Below, one piece after another: positions 8,672 to 58,366 of a DNA stretch of 64,000 bases. The notes under the pieces were generated by a model. That model was not told the origin of the DNA and did not search any database. It saw only the letters and a list, made by a program, of their open reading frames with translations. Source of the stretch: Euryarchaeota archaeon UBA62. Its GTDB lineage: Archaea; Thermoplasmatota; Poseidoniia; Poseidoniales; Thalassarchaeaceae. The stretch covers positions 29,069-93,068 of the forward strand of contig DAPJ01000021.1 in the NCBI GenBank assembly GCA_002502095.1, written 5' to 3'. Position 1 is the first letter of the stretch. Each line of letters begins with the position of its first letter. The position numbers and the translations under genes are program-made.

Positions 8672-9574
8672 CTAAGGAGTATGTCCTAAAACCACATTGG
8701 CAAAAGATTCGAGAACTCCAGCACCATCATGGTCTCTCTGGAATGATAGCATCTCAGCTTCGCTAATGTGGCCCCATTGGAATGCACGCTCGATCCTGTG
8801 CTTAGCCGCTTCTGGATGGAATTGAACCCCCCATGCAGGTAACTTATCCCCATCAGCGCCCAGAACTCTAATTGCAGTAATCTCGTTATGGGAAGCAGAG
8901 CCAAGTAGGATAGAGTTTTGTGGCATAGTGACTACATGGTCTTGGTGAGAGTAAACTACGGCAGGACCAACGTCTTCCATCTTCCGTAAATCAAATAAGA
9001 CATCTTCATGTCCTTCCTCATTTAGTTTCATATTCCAAATTCCGCTCGACATACTATCTGCTCTAGTGACCTCTGAACCAAGAGATTTGCATAGAAGTTG
9101 GTGACCAAAGCAAATGCCGAGAGTAGGAGTCCCAGATTTCGAAGACACCCTCATTAGAGACGATGCGCCATCCATCCAACCTTCCCACATTGTGACATTT
9201 TTCCTTGAACCAGAGCAAACAACCGCATCGACCTTTATCGATTCTAGCCACTTGGCCATTTCGAGGTCTTCTCTTCCGGTTGGCAGTGCCACTCTGTAGA
9301 ATCTAGCAACATTCTCTCCCATGGGGACCTCACAACTTTCCCAGAATGGATAATCATAGTCCCAATTTGGAACATCTTTCTCTCCTATGAAGTAAAGCCC
9401 TTCTTCATTAGCCTTGATTCCAGATTCTTCAGATTGCATATGCGGAGTGAGTAGGAAGATATCGACATCTCCTTCCCTTGCAATCGGCTGAATAACTTCC
9501 TGGTTGCCACCATGTCCGAATTCGGATCTTTCAACAAGAAGGTCGAGTAATAGTATACGCCTAGTACGACTCAT
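8672..9574 (-). CDS. Class I glutamine amidotransferase-like protein
   Basis: GATase1 motifs GICFGHQLL (nucleophile Cys) and QFHPE. ORF-track start is 9697. I prefer MSRTRRILLLDL at 9574, which removes the overlap with the divergent NifU-like gene. Confidence 0.7.
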   Translation of the reverse strand: MSRTRRILLLDLLVERSEFGHGGNQEVIQPIAREGDVDIFLLTPHMQSEESGIKANEEGLYFIGEKDVPNWDYDYPFWESCEVPMGENVARFYRVALPTGREDLEMAKWLESIKVDAVVCSGSRKNVTMWEGWMDGASSLMRVSSKSGTPTLGICFGHQLLCKSLGSEVTRADSMSSGIWNMKLNEEGHEDVLFDLRKMEDVGPAVVYSHQDHVVTMPQNSILLGSASHNEITAIRVLGADGDKLPAWGVQFHPEAAKHRIERAFQWGHISEAEMLSFQRDHDGAGVLESFANVVLGHTP

Positions 9575-9634
9575 GCCAGTGGGAAGAGGCGATTGCTTGA
9601 AAGCCCCCCGTATGTACAGAGGTATGGGGCGGAC

Positions 9635-9913
9635 ATGGTAGATAAGCAGTTGATACTGGATTCTGTAGGCCCGGTTCAAGCAGTTCTTGATGCTCACGAT
9701 GGGGTTGTGAATGTCATCGATACTACTGCGGGAGTAATTTCTATTTCCCTAGAGGGTGGCTGTACCGGATGTAGTGCTACTCCGATGACAGCAATGCAAA
9801 TCTACTACTCCCTGATGAAATTAGAAGAAGTCAATGATGTAATATTTGTCAACGGCGAACTTCCTGCATACATGAGGTCCTTCATCGATGATAAGATAGG
9901 TGGAGAGAGCTAA
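9635..9913 (+). CDS. NifU C-terminal (Nfu-type) Fe-S scaffold domain protein
   Basis: About 92 aa with a GGCTGCSATPMT CxxC motif in the typical Nfu context. Start trimmed to MVDKQL. Confidence 0.6.
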   Translation: MVDKQLILDSVGPVQAVLDAHDGVVNVIDTTAGVISISLEGGCTGCSATPMTAMQIYYSLMKLEEVNDVIFVNGELPAYMRSFIDDKIGGES

Positions 9914-51163: not shown

Positions 51164-52501
51164 TTACTTCTCTCTGAGAGATAAGAGTGCAGTTTCTACA
51201 GCCGCCATTGTAATCCTCTCGCCACTTTCTCTAACCATGGTAGCAACCTTCTCGACCTCATGATCTTCCGCACCCGCGGCGGCCACCATATTCATCAGAT
51301 GTAATTTCATATGGCCAGCCTGAATTCCGACTGTGGCGAGAGCCCTCAAGGCACCAAGGTTCTGTGCCAATCCCGCCGCCGCCATTACCTTGGCCAAATC
51401 ATTAGCAGTACGCAGACCCAATAATGCAACATTTGCTTGTGCCCCAGGGTGGATTCTAACGGCACCTCCTACTAATCCTACGGCCATTGGAATCTCAATT
51501 GATCCGACTAGATTCCCATCAGAGTCTTTTTCCCAGTGAGTCATTGAGGAATATTCTCTCCCAAAGGAGGCATACGAGTGAGCTCCTGACTCTATGGCCC
51601 TCCAGTCCTGCCCACATGCTATAGCAATTGGTGAAATCGCGTTCATTATTCCCTTATTGTGAGTAGTCGCCCTGAATGGATCGGCAGCGGCAAAGTGATA
51701 CGCCTGAATAACGCCATCAATAACATTGGAGCCATTCTCTGAATCTTTACCGTCATCAGACATCTCTTCAGGGGTGAATATTGCACTTACCTTGGCTAGC
51801 CTATGTACTGCTAGATTACTGATTATACGGAGTATTACAGTTCCAGAACTCAACTCTTCAATTTTTTGAGCTATTGTCTCTGCCATGGTATTGACGGCAT
51901 TGGCTCCCATTGCATCCCTACAATCAACTAGGATATGTACGATAACCATCGGTCCAGATTCTGTCTCTATGACTCGAACTTCTACATCCCTGCATCCTCC
52001 TCCAAATTTTACAAGAATCGGATCAACCTCGTTGCAAGCATCAATCAACTCGTTTTTAGATGAGAGGATGGCATCTTTGGCTAAGTATGGATCCTCACAT
52101 CCAACAACCTGAATTTGACCTATCATTACGGGAGCATCATTATCTGAAACAAAACCCCCATTGGAATGGCATCTTTTAGCCATATTGGAAGCGGCCGCTA
52201 CAACACTCGCTTCTTCCACAACGAATGGTATCAGATAATGCTCGCCATCAATGATGAAGTTTGTAGCCACTCCAATCGGTAACGAGTATGTACCAATTAC
52301 ATTCTCTATCATCCTATCTGCAACTTCTTCTGAAAGCTCCCCATTAGATGCCCATGCCTCTACCATATCATCCTCTAGTCCTGCAATCTCCGAGAGCAAG
52401 TCCCTCCTCTCTGAGACAGATAGTTTGTAGAATCCTTTCAATCGACTGCTATCCACTGGCATGTTATCGTACCTAGTCGGCGAAAACACCCTTCTGTACA
52501 T
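51164..52501 (-). CDS. hmgA: HMG-CoA reductase, class II type
   Basis: ENVIGTYSLPIGVATNFIIDGEHYLIPFVVEEASVVAAASNMAK closely parallels the class II (Pseudomonas mevalonii-type) block as I recall it. DAMGANAVNTM also present. Its stop abuts the citrate synthase stop with no gap. Confidence 0.9.
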   Translation of the reverse strand: MYRRVFSPTRYDNMPVDSSRLKGFYKLSVSERRDLLSEIAGLEDDMVEAWASNGELSEEVADRMIENVIGTYSLPIGVATNFIIDGEHYLIPFVVEEASVVAAASNMAKRCHSNGGFVSDNDAPVMIGQIQVVGCEDPYLAKDAILSSKNELIDACNEVDPILVKFGGGCRDVEVRVIETESGPMVIVHILVDCRDAMGANAVNTMAETIAQKIEELSSGTVILRIISNLAVHRLAKVSAIFTPEEMSDDGKDSENGSNVIDGVIQAYHFAAADPFRATTHNKGIMNAISPIAIACGQDWRAIESGAHSYASFGREYSSMTHWEKDSDGNLVGSIEIPMAVGLVGGAVRIHPGAQANVALLGLRTANDLAKVMAAAGLAQNLGALRALATVGIQAGHMKLHLMNMVAAAGAEDHEVEKVATMVRESGERITMAAVETALLSLREK

Positions 52502-52572
52502 TTCGCTTGAATATCTCTCATAATATCACTTAGGTGACCACATAATCTGATCCAGATACAATATTTTCATCA

Positions 52573-52749
52573 CATTAAAGCGTTAATTATTCTATTAACG
52601 CTTTGTTAACGCATAATTAAAGCGTTAGTAAAACGTTAATATTACTAATATACATTCGACTTACTAATCTAAACTATTGAGAATTTTATATCTAAAAATG
52701 CGTAAATATACGTTAATAATAACTATCTTATCTGTTAGTAAACGTTAAT
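52573..52749. repeat. Cluster of CGTTAAT-core repeats in an AT-rich intergenic region
   Basis: Read directly. CGTTAAT at about 52580, 52633, 52710, 52742. ATTAACG at about 52593. Imperfect copies at about 52605 (TTAACGC) and 52622 (CGTTAG). 12-bp direct repeat ATTAAAGCGTTA at 52573 and 52615. Direct repeat GTTAGTAAA(A)CGTTAAT at 52623 and 52733. Confidence 0.85.
52576..52603. promoter_or_regulatory. Perfect 11-bp inverted repeat AAAGCGTTAAT-N6-ATTAACGCTTT (candidate dimeric protein-binding site)
   Basis: Read directly from the sequence. The arms are exact reverse complements. Function is inferred only. Confidence 0.6.
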
Positions 52750-52779
52750 GTTATGTACTCCTGACTATTCACCAACATC

Positions 52780-54669
52780 GTGGCAGGTGTTCCATCCGAG
52801 AATCTTGGTTTGCCCTTGTTGAGAGGCAACCCCTTTGATCTCAGGCCAATCGAGAGTGGAAGGGCCGAGTACCTAGTCGGAAGGGATAGGCTAATCGCTT
52901 CTTGGAGAGAGCATATTATTTCACAATCACCAAGGATGTTACTACTTGTTGGCGAGAGGGGTTCCGGGCGTTCATCAGTTGTGAGAACTTTAGCTTCACA
53001 GACGAGAAGAAGTTTTGTCGGTCAATATTGGCCTACCAGCGATCCCGTGAATGCAATAATTCATGAATTAGCAATTCATTTTTGCGGGTTTAGTTCATCG
53101 GGCTCAAATCAGAAAATGATAGATGATTTAGTCTCCAATCTGGAAGAGAGTTCTGGATCCCTGCCCGTGATATCTCTTGATTATCCATCAAATATAGAAA
53201 TCTCCATGGTATTGAATTCAATATCCCCCATTCTTCAAAGACTGAGGGCGCTAGTCATCGTAGTACTCACTCCCTCTCAATTGTCTTCTATTGATGAAGA
53301 GACTCTCGAGCTTTATGACAGGCCAGAATATACAACACATCTATCTAAAGAGCAAATCCAAGAGTTATCTAACAGACTCGTATCAAGAAAGGCTAGAGAG
53401 AAATGGATTATTGATGATATTTTACTATCAAGGATTTATGAATCTACCTCTGGAAACCCTAGAGATGTTATTCGACTTTTGAGGGACCTAATCGATGAGA
53501 GGAGGGATGTTGGTGCACATGGGGCACTAGAGAGACTAATGCGTTGGAAAATTATCAATGACTCCAGTGATGTATATGAAAAGGATGGAGAAAATCAAAT
53601 TTTATTTCCGGATGAATCTCAAGGTCATATCACTGAAGAGGATAATCAATTATCCGTAGATGATCCTCCCGAAAACCGAGATTTCAAATTACAATCAACT
53701 TATTCTGATGGTGATGAATCAATCCAAGACATTACTGAATACATCGAAGATCAAGGAGACAACCTCCATAGTGATGAGCTTGAAGAATACCCCTTCAATT
53801 TCCAAACAGAAACAGGTGAAAGTCAAGTAAATATCGAGGATTTCTCTGAAGATCCAGATGACCTATGGGAGGGGGACTTAGATACCGATGTAGAAGAAAT
53901 ACCCGTAGAAAGAAATACCGAGCAAGGGACATTGGATGATTTTGTCTACATTCAACCAGGTACGGAGCCCCCAATGTTTCATTCAGGAAGTGGTTTCAAC
54001 GGCCTCGCCCAGAGATCAAAATTAGCCCAAAGTCAACAGCCCAACGAAAAAGAAGATACTCCACTCATAGAGTCAGTATCTGAGATTTCACATCTCTGGG
54101 AAGGGGATAAGATAGATATTGAAAGCAATCAACCGGAAAAAAATATTCCAATCATTAGTAATATCGATCCAGAGTGGGAAATAGAAGATCCACAACTCCC
54201 AGAAAAAGAGACCTCCAGTGTCATTTCGACTGATTCCGCCCACTGGTCAGTGGAGCCATCAATGGCCTCTTCATTGCCCGTTTTCGAAGATTCAGAAACT
54301 GAGATTATTGATACTCCATTTGGTATCGAAGACGCTCCCGTTCAATCAATTGATATTATTGAAAATAAATCTGAAAATCCTCGAAGGGAAAACTTCCGTC
54401 CGACTACTTCATGGGAGCCTGACAATCCTTTTGATGAGGAGAGGAGTATATATCTAAATGAAGCTGAAATGTTAGTCATTTCAATGGCTTCAAAGAGAGA
54501 GATTTCTCCCTCAGATGCAGAACTCCAGGCCAGGCTCGAGGTTGGAAGACCCCGCCTCTCTCAGATATACAATGGACTCCACAAGTCCGGATACCTTTCT
54601 GTCAGGAAGCAAGGAAGAAAGAGACTATTCAAAATCACAGAAGCTGCACAGAAATTAGTGGAGGCATAA
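52780..54669 (+). CDS. Divergent Orc1/Cdc6-like P-loop protein with degenerate Walker motifs, long acidic linker and C-terminal winged helix
   Basis: The N-terminus has the same layout as the canonical Cdc6 in this window (P..LVGRD, about 20 aa, then a P-loop): YLVGRDRLIASW...LLLVGERGSGRSSVVRTL. The Walker A Lys position is Arg. The candidate Walker B VISLDY lacks Glu. About 300 aa of D/E-rich low-complexity follows. The C-terminus LSQIYNGLHKSGYLSVRKQGRKRLFKIT is wHTH-like. GTG start per the ORF track. Confidence 0.5.
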   Translation: MAGVPSENLGLPLLRGNPFDLRPIESGRAEYLVGRDRLIASWREHIISQSPRMLLLVGERGSGRSSVVRTLASQTRRSFVGQYWPTSDPVNAIIHELAIHFCGFSSSGSNQKMIDDLVSNLEESSGSLPVISLDYPSNIEISMVLNSISPILQRLRALVIVVLTPSQLSSIDEETLELYDRPEYTTHLSKEQIQELSNRLVSRKAREKWIIDDILLSRIYESTSGNPRDVIRLLRDLIDERRDVGAHGALERLMRWKIINDSSDVYEKDGENQILFPDESQGHITEEDNQLSVDDPPENRDFKLQSTYSDGDESIQDITEYIEDQGDNLHSDELEEYPFNFQTETGESQVNIEDFSEDPDDLWEGDLDTDVEEIPVERNTEQGTLDDFVYIQPGTEPPMFHSGSGFNGLAQRSKLAQSQQPNEKEDTPLIESVSEISHLWEGDKIDIESNQPEKNIPIISNIDPEWEIEDPQLPEKETSSVISTDSAHWSVEPSMASSLPVFEDSETEIIDTPFGIEDAPVQSIDIIENKSENPRRENFRPTTSWEPDNPFDEERSIYLNEAEMLVISMASKREISPSDAELQARLEVGRPRLSQIYNGLHKSGYLSVRKQGRKRLFKITEAAQKLVEA

Positions 54670-54670
54670 T

Positions 54671-54964
54671 ATGGATGAAAACGTATTAATTACCGAAGAA
54701 AGAGTGAAGAAATATATCTCAATCACCCTTCAAGCAAGGAAGAAGGCCACACCAAATAATCTTAGCAAGGCGGACTTGGAAAGATTGGACTCTATGATGA
54801 GAATGTGTGATGACTACTACTCAGATTCAAAATACTTCCTTGAGAAAGGGGATTTGGTCCGGGCATTCGGAGCAATAAACTACTCGCATGCATGGATCGA
54901 CGCGGCAGTAAAAATCGGCTTAATGGATGGGCATGGAGATGATGTTCTTTTCACTCTTCCTTAA
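54671..54964 (+). CDS. Small archaeal protein, DUF357-like
   Basis: 97 aa helical protein. The pattern (YYSDSKYFLEKGDLVRAFGAINYSHAWIDA) resembles the archaeal DUF357 family as I recall it. Starts 2 nt after the upstream stop. Confidence 0.4.
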   Translation: MDENVLITEERVKKYISITLQARKKATPNNLSKADLERLDSMMRMCDDYYSDSKYFLEKGDLVRAFGAINYSHAWIDAAVKIGLMDGHGDDVLFTLP

Positions 54965-55326
54965 TCAACTAGGCGTAGCATTCTATCTGATACGACTTCA
55001 ATATAGGAGCAACCAGACTCAGATAGTTTTTCTTTCAATCTAGTATCAACCGTAAGTACTGGCCAGTTATTCATTTTTGAAAGCCGTACTAGCATCATAT
55101 CGGTGTGCCTTTCCCCGGGAGGATCATCCATCATTTCTGAGCGACTGTTCAAGAGTCCAAGGAGAAGCCCCCTCTTGCCCCTAGATAGATCATCCAGCTC
55201 CCTCCAGACACTATCAATTACTATCAGATCTGGCTTTCCTATGACATTAGACATCGCAGAATCCAAGTTCAGCCCTGACTTGACAAATGCAATCCAGCCA
55301 CAAGTATCGACGAGAACTCCCGCCAA
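54961..55326 (-). CDS. PIN-domain protein (Fcf1/Utp24- or VapC-like nuclease)
   Basis: N-terminal VLVDTCGWI acidic motif and C-terminal VLTVDTRLKEKL. Lies directly downstream of aIF2-gamma. Confidence 0.5.
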   Translation of the reverse strand: MAGVLVDTCGWIAFVKSGLNLDSAMSNVIGKPDLIVIDSVWRELDDLSRGKRGLLLGLLNSRSEMMDDPPGERHTDMMLVRLSKMNNWPVLTVDTRLKEKLSESGCSYIEVVSDRMLRLVD

Positions 55327-57157: not shown

Positions 57158-58366
57158 CTACCGCTTCGTGAACTCTTCCTCAATCCTACTTCCTATTGTT
57201 GCGGGTGCGGTATTGGTCATTGTAATGTATGTAGTTCTACCCCTACCAACTGTAGTATTAGTTGACCGGGCATCCAACAAACCTTCCTTTTCCAGTGCCT
57301 TGAGATGCTTCCAGAATGTCGTATAGCTCCGTGGTTTTACTCCAAATTCCTCACATACCACTTCATATAGCTTCCTAGCATCTCCACTTGATATCTCCTC
57401 TTCCTTACGTAATCTTCTACATATCCCGAGAAGTACAAGTTTCTGATGGGCACTAAGGGAGTCAACCTGGCTCGGCTCCACAGAAGCAGACCTTATGGTA
57501 CTCGGCATTACATCATTCAACGCAACCTCTCCTCTTCCATCCATCTCCGCCCTCCTTACCGCTGCCTCAAGAAGCTCGATAGCTAGCCTGGCATCGCCAG
57601 TACCCTCAGCAAATCTTCCTATCTTCTCGAGAATATCATCGCTCACTGATCCGGATCTACAAGATGCCTCATATCTCTGTTTGGAAATTCCAATCAGGCC
57701 ATCGTACCCATAGGGCTCCAGCTTCAGTACGTTACTCTCTCCAAGTCTCGAGATTATCGCCGGCTCCATCATACCCATCAGTGACAAGTCCTGACTAACT
57801 AGAATCAGAGAGATAGTTCCTTGCCCGCCCTGTCCTTCATCGATTCGCAGTAGTTTGTAGATTAGATCGCTATTATCTCTCCTAATGAGGATATCAACCT
57901 CGTCTAATACCAATATCATATGGAGCCCCCTAGACCGAATATTCCTCCTTATCGACTGAATAATTTCCCCAGAGCTAAACCCCCTCTCAGGATGTCGGGA
58001 GTCCAAAGACAGTGCAATCTGTTGTAAGACCTGATTCGTAGAGGGATGATTACGACAATTAACATGAGACAGAGTCATCTTCCTAACTCCATCCAACTCT
58101 CTGATTACATCCTCTCCAAATCTTCTAGTTAGTACGGTTTTTCCCGTTCCAACATGACCTATGACCACTGCACGACCACTCACTCCCTCGCTACCTATTC
58201 CCATGAACATCGAGGCTAAAAGGCCTAGTTCCTTGTCCCTGCCTACAAGATTTGGAGGAGTCCAATCGAATGAAAGTGGCCCCCTGTCGACGAGTATCTT
58301 GCCAGCACCGATATTGTCAAGGTAGTCTGTCATCAGACCACACGCGCTAACATCGTTATTAGACAT
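57158..58366 (-). CDS. cdc6: Orc1/Cdc6 replication initiator
   Basis: LVGRDKEL, Walker A GHVGTGKT, Walker B ILVLDEVD, sensor regions, and a C-terminal winged helix (LKALEKEGLLDARSTNTTVGRGRTTYI). Confidence 0.92.
   Translation of the reverse strand: MSNNDVSACGLMTDYLDNIGAGKILVDRGPLSFDWTPPNLVGRDKELGLLASMFMGIGSEGVSGRAVVIGHVGTGKTVLTRRFGEDVIRELDGVRKMTLSHVNCRNHPSTNQVLQQIALSLDSRHPERGFSSGEIIQSIRRNIRSRGLHMILVLDEVDILIRRDNSDLIYKLLRIDEGQGGQGTISLILVSQDLSLMGMMEPAIISRLGESNVLKLEPYGYDGLIGISKQRYEASCRSGSVSDDILEKIGRFAEGTGDARLAIELLEAAVRRAEMDGRGEVALNDVMPSTIRSASVEPSQVDSLSAHQKLVLLGICRRLRKEEEISSGDARKLYEVVCEEFGVKPRSYTTFWKHLKALEKEGLLDARSTNTTVGRGRTTYITMTNTAPATIGSRIEEEFTKR

Follow-up and report, generated by a model that had tools for sequence, protein, structure and literature searches.

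A 64,000-nucleotide stretch of the Euryarchaeota archaeon UBA62 genome (order Poseidoniales; the whole stretch is hereafter called the window) contains an intergenic gap filled with copies of one short motif, CGTTAAT in its core and wAAnGCGTTAAT in full, between hmgA and a divergently transcribed gene for an AAA+/winged helix-turn-helix (wHTH) protein that starts at position 52780. We interpret this gap as a multi-site operator that would be bound by the product of the 52780 gene, mainly for autoregulation and possibly also for the control of hmgA. The probability of this reading is put at about 0.58, and it is preferred because the array of sites is fixed relative to the start of the gene and because its last site, S9, lies at the predicted promoter. 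Judged by comparison of sequences, the array is a real, functional and locus-specific element, because it leaves a conserved footprint, persists across clades and is exclusive to this gap. A preliminary description of the window had offered two roles for the gap, a replication origin or an operator array controlling both hmgA and the wHTH gene. The second is retained here and tied to the 52780 gene, its link to hmgA being the weaker part, and the first was not borne out by the tests described below.

The site array and its conservation

The gap measures 278 bp (52502-52779), as first described, if the upstream ATG of hmgA is used, and about 317 bp with the more probable start at Met14. Exact copies of CGTTAAT were found at 52581, 52634, 52711 and 52743 on the plus strand and at 52594 on the minus strand, which means that five of the nine CGTTAAT copies in the 64-kb window fall inside the 278-bp gap; the remaining four are singletons within genes. 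Dinucleotide-preserving shuffles of the gap averaged 0.15 copies, and not one of the 5000 reached the observed five. RCGTTART occurs six times inside the gap and once in the remainder of the window. The degenerate form RCGTWARY identifies eight sites in the gap, and the ninth, TGTTAGT in the window, has the form CGTTAGT or CGTAAAT in relatives. Imperfect copies comprise CGTTAGT at 52623, CGTAAAT at 52701, GTTAACG at 52605 (minus strand) and TGTTAGT at 52733. A 12-bp direct repeat, ATTAAAGCGTTA, has copies at 52574 and 52616, and a second direct repeat, GTTAGTAAA(A)CGTTAAT, has copies at 52624-52640 and 52734-52749. All the CGTTAAT copies, the inverted repeat and both direct repeats that had been listed in the preliminary description were recovered at their positions.

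The sites form two clusters (52577-52640 and 52700-52749) around a 56-bp core (52641-52696) of 80% AT, an arrangement that had been recognized correctly at the outset. Double sites 10-11 bp apart dominate, giving four units of about 19 bp with the form GCGTTARnAAAnCGTTAAT. The AT content is 72.7% in the gap versus 54.3% window-wide, the highest among the 278-bp stretches of the window. The gap had been called the only long intergenic region, and this is essentially right: apparently larger gaps at 43.7, 60.7 and 10.3 kb, produced by a greedy picker of open reading frames (ORFs), are artefacts and are occupied by real genes. Rfam and tRNA scans detected no RNA family in the gap, their sole match being a tRNA-Ser at 63.8 kb.

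About 100 syntenic loci were collected for comparison, including 12 from species-representative genomes, 80 metagenomic loci retrieved with a profile of distant members and several obtained by exact protein look-up. About 90 syntenic Poseidoniales loci share the wAAnGCGTTAAT sites, and the spacers between the sites diverge. Among the 11 closest loci (clade A, protein identity 60-97%), 78% of site columns are invariant, as are 24% of the non-site columns within the array and 7% of those in the hmgA-proximal part of the gap. The arms of the palindrome are constant among relatives and its N6 spacer is freely variable, and the gap length is 316-318 bp in 11 of 11 clade-A loci. The same motif is found in clade B, in which the proteins are 48-57% identical and the genomes have 50-59% GC, and it is retained in clade C although the neighbour proteins are merely 25-30% identical there. 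Taken over clades B, C and D, it is kept across genomes of 38-70% GC, two of the relatives having 70% GC.

Position weight matrices built for the three main clades have wAAnGCGTTAAT in common, with a spacing of 9-12 bp between neighbouring sites. The gaps of 86 loci contain 4-9 CGTTA cores each (mean 6.9), corresponding to 26 per kb versus 0.72 per kb elsewhere, and clusters of at least three sites per 100 bp are confined to this gap in 1.28 Mb of sequence from 105 loci. An alignment of syntenic regions and a count of the motif had been proposed as checks in the preliminary description, and both came out in favour of the array: the repeats are present in the hmgA-upstream gaps of relatives, and clustering is specific to the gap, the other copies in the window being single and intragenic. 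A scan of viral contigs for the palindrome gave 60 isolated matches at chance level, among which arrays and homologues of the proteins of the locus were absent, and a literature search on the Marine Group II (MGII) origin or on the motif returned nothing relevant. Tandem repeats were also seen in the same gap of relatives, namely a lineage-specific 61-bp duplication with GTTCCAG strings in locus L102 (70% GC; 9540-9661) and two tandem copies of the 17-bp TGTGGCAGGGTGGCGCC in L101.

The neighbour protein and the predicted promoter

The gene at 52780 had been labelled a wHTH gene. A wHTH is indeed present, and the protein of 629 residues includes an AAA+ domain and a disordered linker as well (Table 1). 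The array co-occurs with an invariant DNA-reading head of this protein, in which the recognition-helix segment RPRLSQI(YN) and the wing VRKQGR do not vary across the close family; RxRLSQI is still present in the most distant family members. The AlphaFold2 (AF2) model of the C-terminal domain has a predicted local distance difference test score (pLDDT) of 84 and a predicted template-modelling score of 0.72. Foldseek placed ArsR/SmtB or MarR transcription factors at all 50 of its 50 best PDB matches, with HlyU, SqrR, SmtB, BigR, CzrA and NolR at template-modelling scores of about 0.65. Sequence comparison gave weak matches to BigR and HlyU, and a PDB sequence search returned weak wHTH matches solely.

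For the N-terminal domain, Pfam returned AAA_16 at 28.5 bits, below the cut-off of 32.6, AAA_22 at 27.2 bits (cut-off 27) and nSTAND1 below threshold. Its AF2 model has an AAA+ fold (pLDDT 70-84), matched best by Cdc6 (7jgr_G), S. solfataricus Orc1 (2qby) and MuB/TnsC, with RFC, NLR and Vps4 nearly equal, and two helices between strands 2 and 3 are similar to the initiator-specific motif. Walker A reads GERGSGR[ST]S (residues 58-66), with Lys changed to Arg, and Walker B reads VISLDYP (hhhhDYP; residues 130-136) without the catalytic Glu, and neither motif varies within the close family. The distant members P0126, P0127, P0186 and P0192 retain a GKT Walker A. The constancy of GR[ST]S among close relatives, set against the GKT of several distant members, suggests that ATPase activity was lost repeatedly and the fold kept. 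The domain probably binds nucleotide and oligomerises and does not act as a motor.

Residues 256-545 are predicted to be disordered, and no sensor repeat domain was found in them. They carry strongly conserved short motifs (DPDDLW, (Q)GTLDDFVYMEPGTEPP, GFxGLAxRS, SVISTDSAHWSVEPS, FGIEDAP and WEPDNPFD) that look like partner-docking sites. A string resembling a PCNA-interacting peptide (PIP) box, QGTLDDFVY, also occurs in the linker, and it was set aside as evidence because clades C and D lack it and only clades A and B have it. A family profile search of 1.84 billion proteins yielded 195 clusters without spill-over to Orc1/Cdc6, and the AAA+/disordered-linker/winged-helix proteins form an undescribed family.

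Measured from the main cluster, the start codon of the AAA-wHTH gene lies 140-142 bp away in clades A and B, 149-156 bp away in clade D and about 105 bp away in clade C, whereas the interval between the array and the hmgA ATG varies across clades from 50 to 425 bp. As far as spacing can tell, the array is tied more strongly to the 52780 gene than to hmgA, because the first distance is nearly fixed and the second is variable. Immediately downstream of site S9 (52742-52749) is a conserved TTATGTA whose centre lies about 26 nt upstream of the GTG. The string is probably a TATA-like element, which would imply a leaderless or short-leader mRNA, and because it sits where the TATA box of a leaderless mRNA would lie, S9 appears to occupy the predicted position of the TFB-recognition element (BRE) of the gene. 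An overlap of the last repeat with the likely promoter of the 52780 gene, as first proposed, is therefore favoured here. In the relatives of 70% GC, a proximal double site, CCGTAAA(T/C)ACGTTAA, is found about 20-40 nt before the start. Calibration of promoter positions on other genes of the window was noisy and is suggestive at most.

Two start codons are available for hmgA, the upstream ATG at 52501 and the Met14 ATG at 52462 (MPVDSSRLKGFY). Met14 is probably the true start, because MPVD(S/N)SRL is where hmgA is called to begin in clade C, the equivalent there being MPVDNSRL; the gap would therefore be about 317 bp long. Between clades the 13 extra codons show no conservation at the protein level, while within clade A their DNA (ACACCCTTCTGTACATTTCGCTT) does not vary. 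The stretch at 52462-52501 may serve as the hmgA promoter or 5' region; it also includes a degenerate site-like AAGCGAAAT.

On the operator reading, the AAA+ domains, which would oligomerise and probably do not hydrolyse ATP, would gather several protomers, and their winged helices on long tethers would fill the 8-9 helically phased wAAnGCGTTAAT sites. The occupied platform would comprise one palindrome and four double sites of about 19 bp. Because the last double site appears to sit on the BRE/TATA region of the gene's own, probably leaderless, promoter, occupancy could tune the expression of the gene itself, most simply by autorepression. A further action of the upstream cluster, on the promoter of the divergent hmgA, is possible.

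The conserved block runs (smc-scpA-scpB), hmgA (-), gap, AAA-wHTH (+), DUF357, PIN (-), eIF2-gamma (-), S6e (-), orc1/cdc6 (-) and dph2 (-). In the window's own clade, citrate synthase stands in place of smc-scpAB; smc-scpA-scpB lies directly beyond hmgA in L013, L015 and L018-L104, that is, in every clade but this one. Genes for DUF357 and PIN_9-domain proteins follow AAA-wHTH in all related loci (54671-55326 in the window). The stop codon of AAA-wHTH and the start codon of DUF357 are 1 nt apart in the window, which suggests that the two genes are co-transcribed. Between AAA-wHTH and DUF357, clades C and D have an additional gene without a Pfam match, for a product of about 360-410 residues (358 in the clade C block; for example L022 7794-8870 and L101 11823-12956), and it is absent in the window's clade.

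Table 1. Positions of the gap, its sites and the flanking genes in the window.
Feature	Position	Strand	Remarks
Divergent intergenic region between hmgA and the AAA+/wHTH gene	52463..52779	.	From the ORF map, the clade C hmgA start and clade-A gap lengths
Perfect 11-bp palindrome AAAGCGTTAAT-N6-ATTAACGCTTT, sites S1 (+) and S2 (-)	52577-52587 / 52594-52604	.	
Site S1, GCGTTAAT, palindrome partner of S2	52580..52587	+	Invariant in the clade-A alignment
Composite unit U1 (S2 and S3, 11 bp apart), GCGTTAACAAAGCGTTAAT read on the minus strand	52594..52612	-	
Composite unit U2 (S4 and S5, 11 bp apart), GCGTTAGTAAAACGTTAAT	52622..52640	+	
Central box CGAnnTACTAaTCT in the AT-rich spacer, partly conserved	52656..52670	.	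47% of columns invariant
Composite unit U3 (S6 and S7, 10 bp apart), GCGTAAATATACGTTAAT	52700..52717	+	
Composite unit U4 (S8 and S9, 10 bp apart), CTGTTAGTAAACGTTAAT	52732..52749	+	S8 degenerate here
Conserved (G)TTATGTACTC, probable TATA-like element	52750..52760	+	64% of columns invariant; kept in clade B and L103
Gene for the 629-aa AAA+/linker/wHTH protein, proposed binder of the array	52780..54669	+	GTG start
AAA+ domain (residues ~30-255)	52867-53544	+	
Acidic disordered linker with conserved short motifs (residues ~256-545)	53545-54415	+	
C-terminal ArsR/SmtB-like winged helix (residues ~553-629)	54436-54666	+	
hmgA, class II HMG-CoA reductase, possible second target of the array	51164..52501	-	Divergent; true start probably 52462

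Several points weigh against an operator governed by the 52780 product. A different factor could bind the sites, adjacency and co-conservation being circumstantial, and the promoter elements were placed by eye. Nine sites in 170 bp and a gap length kept exactly constant exceed what ordinary autoregulation needs. The AAA+/wHTH layout with its fold match to Cdc6, Orc1 and MuB would also fit a role in chromosome biology, as would the conserved neighbourhood with orc1/cdc6 at a distance of 4.4 kb, SMC-ScpAB and gyrase. Finally, the block is syntenic in every locus found, which makes ownership of the array by the AAA-wHTH gene inseparable from ownership by hmgA or the region.

Other roles considered for the gap

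It is unlikely, on the whole, that the array and the neighbour gene constitute a Poseidoniales-specific chromosome module made of a site plus its binder, either a non-Orc origin or a centromere-like or condensin-loading site. If so, the motifs of the acidic linker would recruit replication or segregation partners. The evidence on these two forms of the idea is set out separately below.

That the array is primarily a regulatory region of hmgA, controlling isoprenoid lipids through the adjacent protein or another factor, is distinctly unlikely. hmgA is the divergent neighbour in all of the about 90 loci and in all clades, the upstream cluster faces it, and a degenerate site-like AAGCGAAATGTAC adjoins its start region. 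Such adjacency, however, is inseparable from general synteny; the distance between the array and the hmgA ATG is the variable one of the two while that to the other gene is nearly fixed, and the hmgA-proximal part of the gap is its least conserved part.

We consider it very unlikely that the gap is an unorthodox origin, at which the AAA+/wHTH protein, as a non-Orc or diverged initiator, would attach to the GCGTTAAT sites, open the AT-rich DNA and bring in MCM. In its favour are an AT-rich core set between two clusters in the most AT-rich stretch of the window and helically phased sites in both orientations. The orc1/cdc6 gene (57158-58366) lies 4.4 kb from the gap with five genes between and has an upstream spacer of 55 bp, as previously described; the 4.4-kb distance recurs in every locus, in each case without an origin-sized gap of its own. 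Origin recognition boxes (ORBs) were sought with two queries, TTCCASTGGAAAY (at most 2 mismatches) and TCCANTGGAAAN5GGGG (at most 3 mismatches), taken from the consensus GTTCCAGTGGAAA..GGGGT of archaea and Methanomassiliicoccales (PMC4153887). No ORB or mini-ORB was found in the gap, beside orc1/cdc6 or at any intergenic spot of the window, and the real origin is to that extent unaccounted for, a circumstance that leaves room for an origin here. The match nearest to the gap is at 53445, within the 52780 gene. ORB-like strings near the gap, in the window and in relatives, proved to be hmgA start codons, ATGCCAGTGGA(T/A)A, and are coding. The motif had already been described as unlike ORB and mini-ORB, and wAAnGCGTTAAT is unrelated to the consensus.

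The AT-rich core, which would have to be the unwinding element, is restricted to the low-GC clade of the window and is not conserved beyond it. In clade C the GC content of the gap is close to that of the locus (for example 0.53 vs 0.51 and 0.38 vs 0.38), and the 50-bp segment lowest in GC is often unremarkable. Relatives of 59-70% GC have a spacer of about 48-65% GC in which the sites persist: it has about 48% GC in L015 (59% GC), the AT island is limited to the sites themselves in L101 (70% GC), and the gap of L102 (70% GC) has 65% GC and no AT-rich stretch with its sites kept.

Skew was analysed gene by gene at four-fold degenerate sites (GC4 and AT4 for GC and AT skew), with the effect of the transcribed strand separated from that of the top strand, first in the window and then over 72.9 kb, the extension coming from a contig of 99.95% identity (L100). 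A constant bias gave a better fit than a switch at the gap in the window alone and, over the longer stretch, for both GC4 (sum of squared errors 63.7 vs 75.2) and AT4 (72.0 vs 86.6). The bias on the right of the gap has the same sign as on the left, with a bootstrap probability of the opposite sign of 0.10 for GC4 and 0.018 for AT4, in a test of limited power that has 20 kb to the right of the gap and in which the replication basis of the bias is not established. Over these 73 kb, skew speaks against an origin at the gap. With gene orientation accounted for, the top-strand four-fold bias is uniform over 73 kb at about -0.06 (GC4) and +0.06 (AT4), and if the bias reflects replication the whole stretch would be replicated in one direction. 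The genes on both sides, including those for S6e, L10e and eIF2-gamma, point at the gap, as had been observed before, and these ribosomal-protein and translation-factor genes would be head-on to outgoing forks.

The protein offers arguments on both sides. For an origin, its AAA+ domain precedes a winged helix, its fold matches include Cdc6, Orc1 and MuB/TnsC, and hhalign aligned it with Poseidoniales Orc1, with a probability of 87.7% that covers just 68 P-loop columns; the kinship to Orc1 indicated by BLASTP and hhalign was rejected as P-loop similarity. Against one, no match was obtained to TIGR02928, Cdc6_lid (PF22703) or Cdc6_C (PF09079), all of which are matched by the orc1 product of the window. 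The Walker A Lys and Walker B Glu are missing, the winged helix is ArsR/MarR-like with no Orc/Cdc6 winged helix among its 50 best PDB fold matches, and the profile of the family never reaches Orc1/Cdc6.

A gap of about 1 kb upstream of orc1 in L101 was considered as the true origin and rejected as GC-rich degraded coding sequence, since the syntenic position in L102 is a saccharopine-dehydrogenase gene. A second sizeable divergent gap of the same genome as the window lies upstream of gyrB at L100 3875-4290 (about 68.6-69.0 kb in window-equivalent positions). It contains, immediately ahead of the gyrB start, the perfect palindrome TTGAGGGTTCC-N3-GGAACCCTCAA, together with ATCCACAGTGTG and CACAGTGTGGAT, an inverted pair separated by 293 bp. 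The change-point in GC4 skew is marginally best at 68-70 kb, with three genes beyond it, and may be due to chance. In MGII genomes, looks alone do not justify annotating the AT-rich, repeat-rich gap nearest to orc1/cdc6 as oriC.

A chromosome-organising site bound by the AAA+/wHTH protein, centromere-like or condensin-loading by analogy with parS/ParB, would be just as improbable: smc-scpA-scpB beyond hmgA, orc1/cdc6 a few kb downstream, gyrB-gyrA about 10-15 kb downstream in the genome of the window (gyrA also at the end of L013/L014), one array of many clustered sites per sampled neighbourhood, and an oligomerising NTPase domain with linker motifs resembling docking sites would suit it, but the argument is one of neighbourhood only in a syntenic block that could be historical, the direct neighbour is hmgA and not smc, the window's clade lost the smc adjacency with the array unchanged, the register with the start codon and the overlap with the predicted promoter point to transcription, and the protein lacks similarity to ParB, SegB and other known centromere-binding proteins.

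Known systems and biological meaning

The locus shares with archaeal oriC a non-coding region, AT-rich in this genome, with oriented repeats in two clusters, an adjacent AAA+/winged-helix gene and a close orc1/cdc6. It differs in having an unrelated motif, no conserved unwinding element, no skew switch and a neighbour that is not Orc1/Cdc6 by family models.

The closest functional analogues of the proposed operator are MalT-type STAND regulators and ArsR/SmtB autoregulators, and the protein is not treated as a member of either because it fails or only weakly meets the definition of each. MalT-type STAND regulators have an N-terminal P-loop NTPase, a sensor of TPR or WD repeats and a C-terminal DNA-binding domain of the LuxR HTH type, and they act at asymmetric boxes in divergent promoters. 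The 52780 product resembles them in its AAA_16/STAND-kind NTPase, with NLR NB-ARC domains among the AAA+ fold matches, in its C-terminal DNA-binding domain, in the direct and inverted boxes next to its gene and in the oligomerisation expected on DNA. Unlike them, it matches AAA_16 and nSTAND1 below threshold, has a 300-residue acidic linker in place of the TPR/WD sensor, carries an ArsR-like winged helix instead of a LuxR HTH, shows the Lys-to-Arg change in Walker A and comes from an archaeal host.

With ArsR/SmtB autoregulators (HlyU, SmtB, BigR, NolR) the protein shares the fold of its C-terminal domain, a palindromic element and sites predicted at its own promoter. Those proteins are dimers of about 100 residues with one or two inverted repeats, whereas in the 629-residue AAA+ fusion described here the domain forms the C-terminal tail, and the array has 8-9 sites, mostly direct double sites. 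Orc1-2 of Sulfolobus, an Orc1/Cdc6 member, is a DNA-damage transcription factor that acts through a short motif in many promoters. By analogy, its AAA+/winged-helix architecture may offer a precedent for a sequence-specific regulator rather than an initiator; the protein described here is outside the Orc1/Cdc6 family, and its sites are limited to one locus in the sampled sequence.

MGII archaea are among the most abundant archaea of the surface ocean and are uncultured, and to our knowledge their gene regulation and chromosome biology are almost entirely undescribed. The locus provides a testable pair, a motif of about 10 bp in a fixed layout of 8-9 sites together with an undescribed protein family, which is conserved from 38% to 70% GC beside a key enzyme of archaeal lipid synthesis and near orc1/cdc6 and SMC. 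Were the site an origin or centromere-like, the initiator or partition system would be new. Should the protein be a regulator, as we favour, the pair would represent a new architecture of archaeal transcription control and could be the first handle on the control of the mevalonate pathway in MGII.

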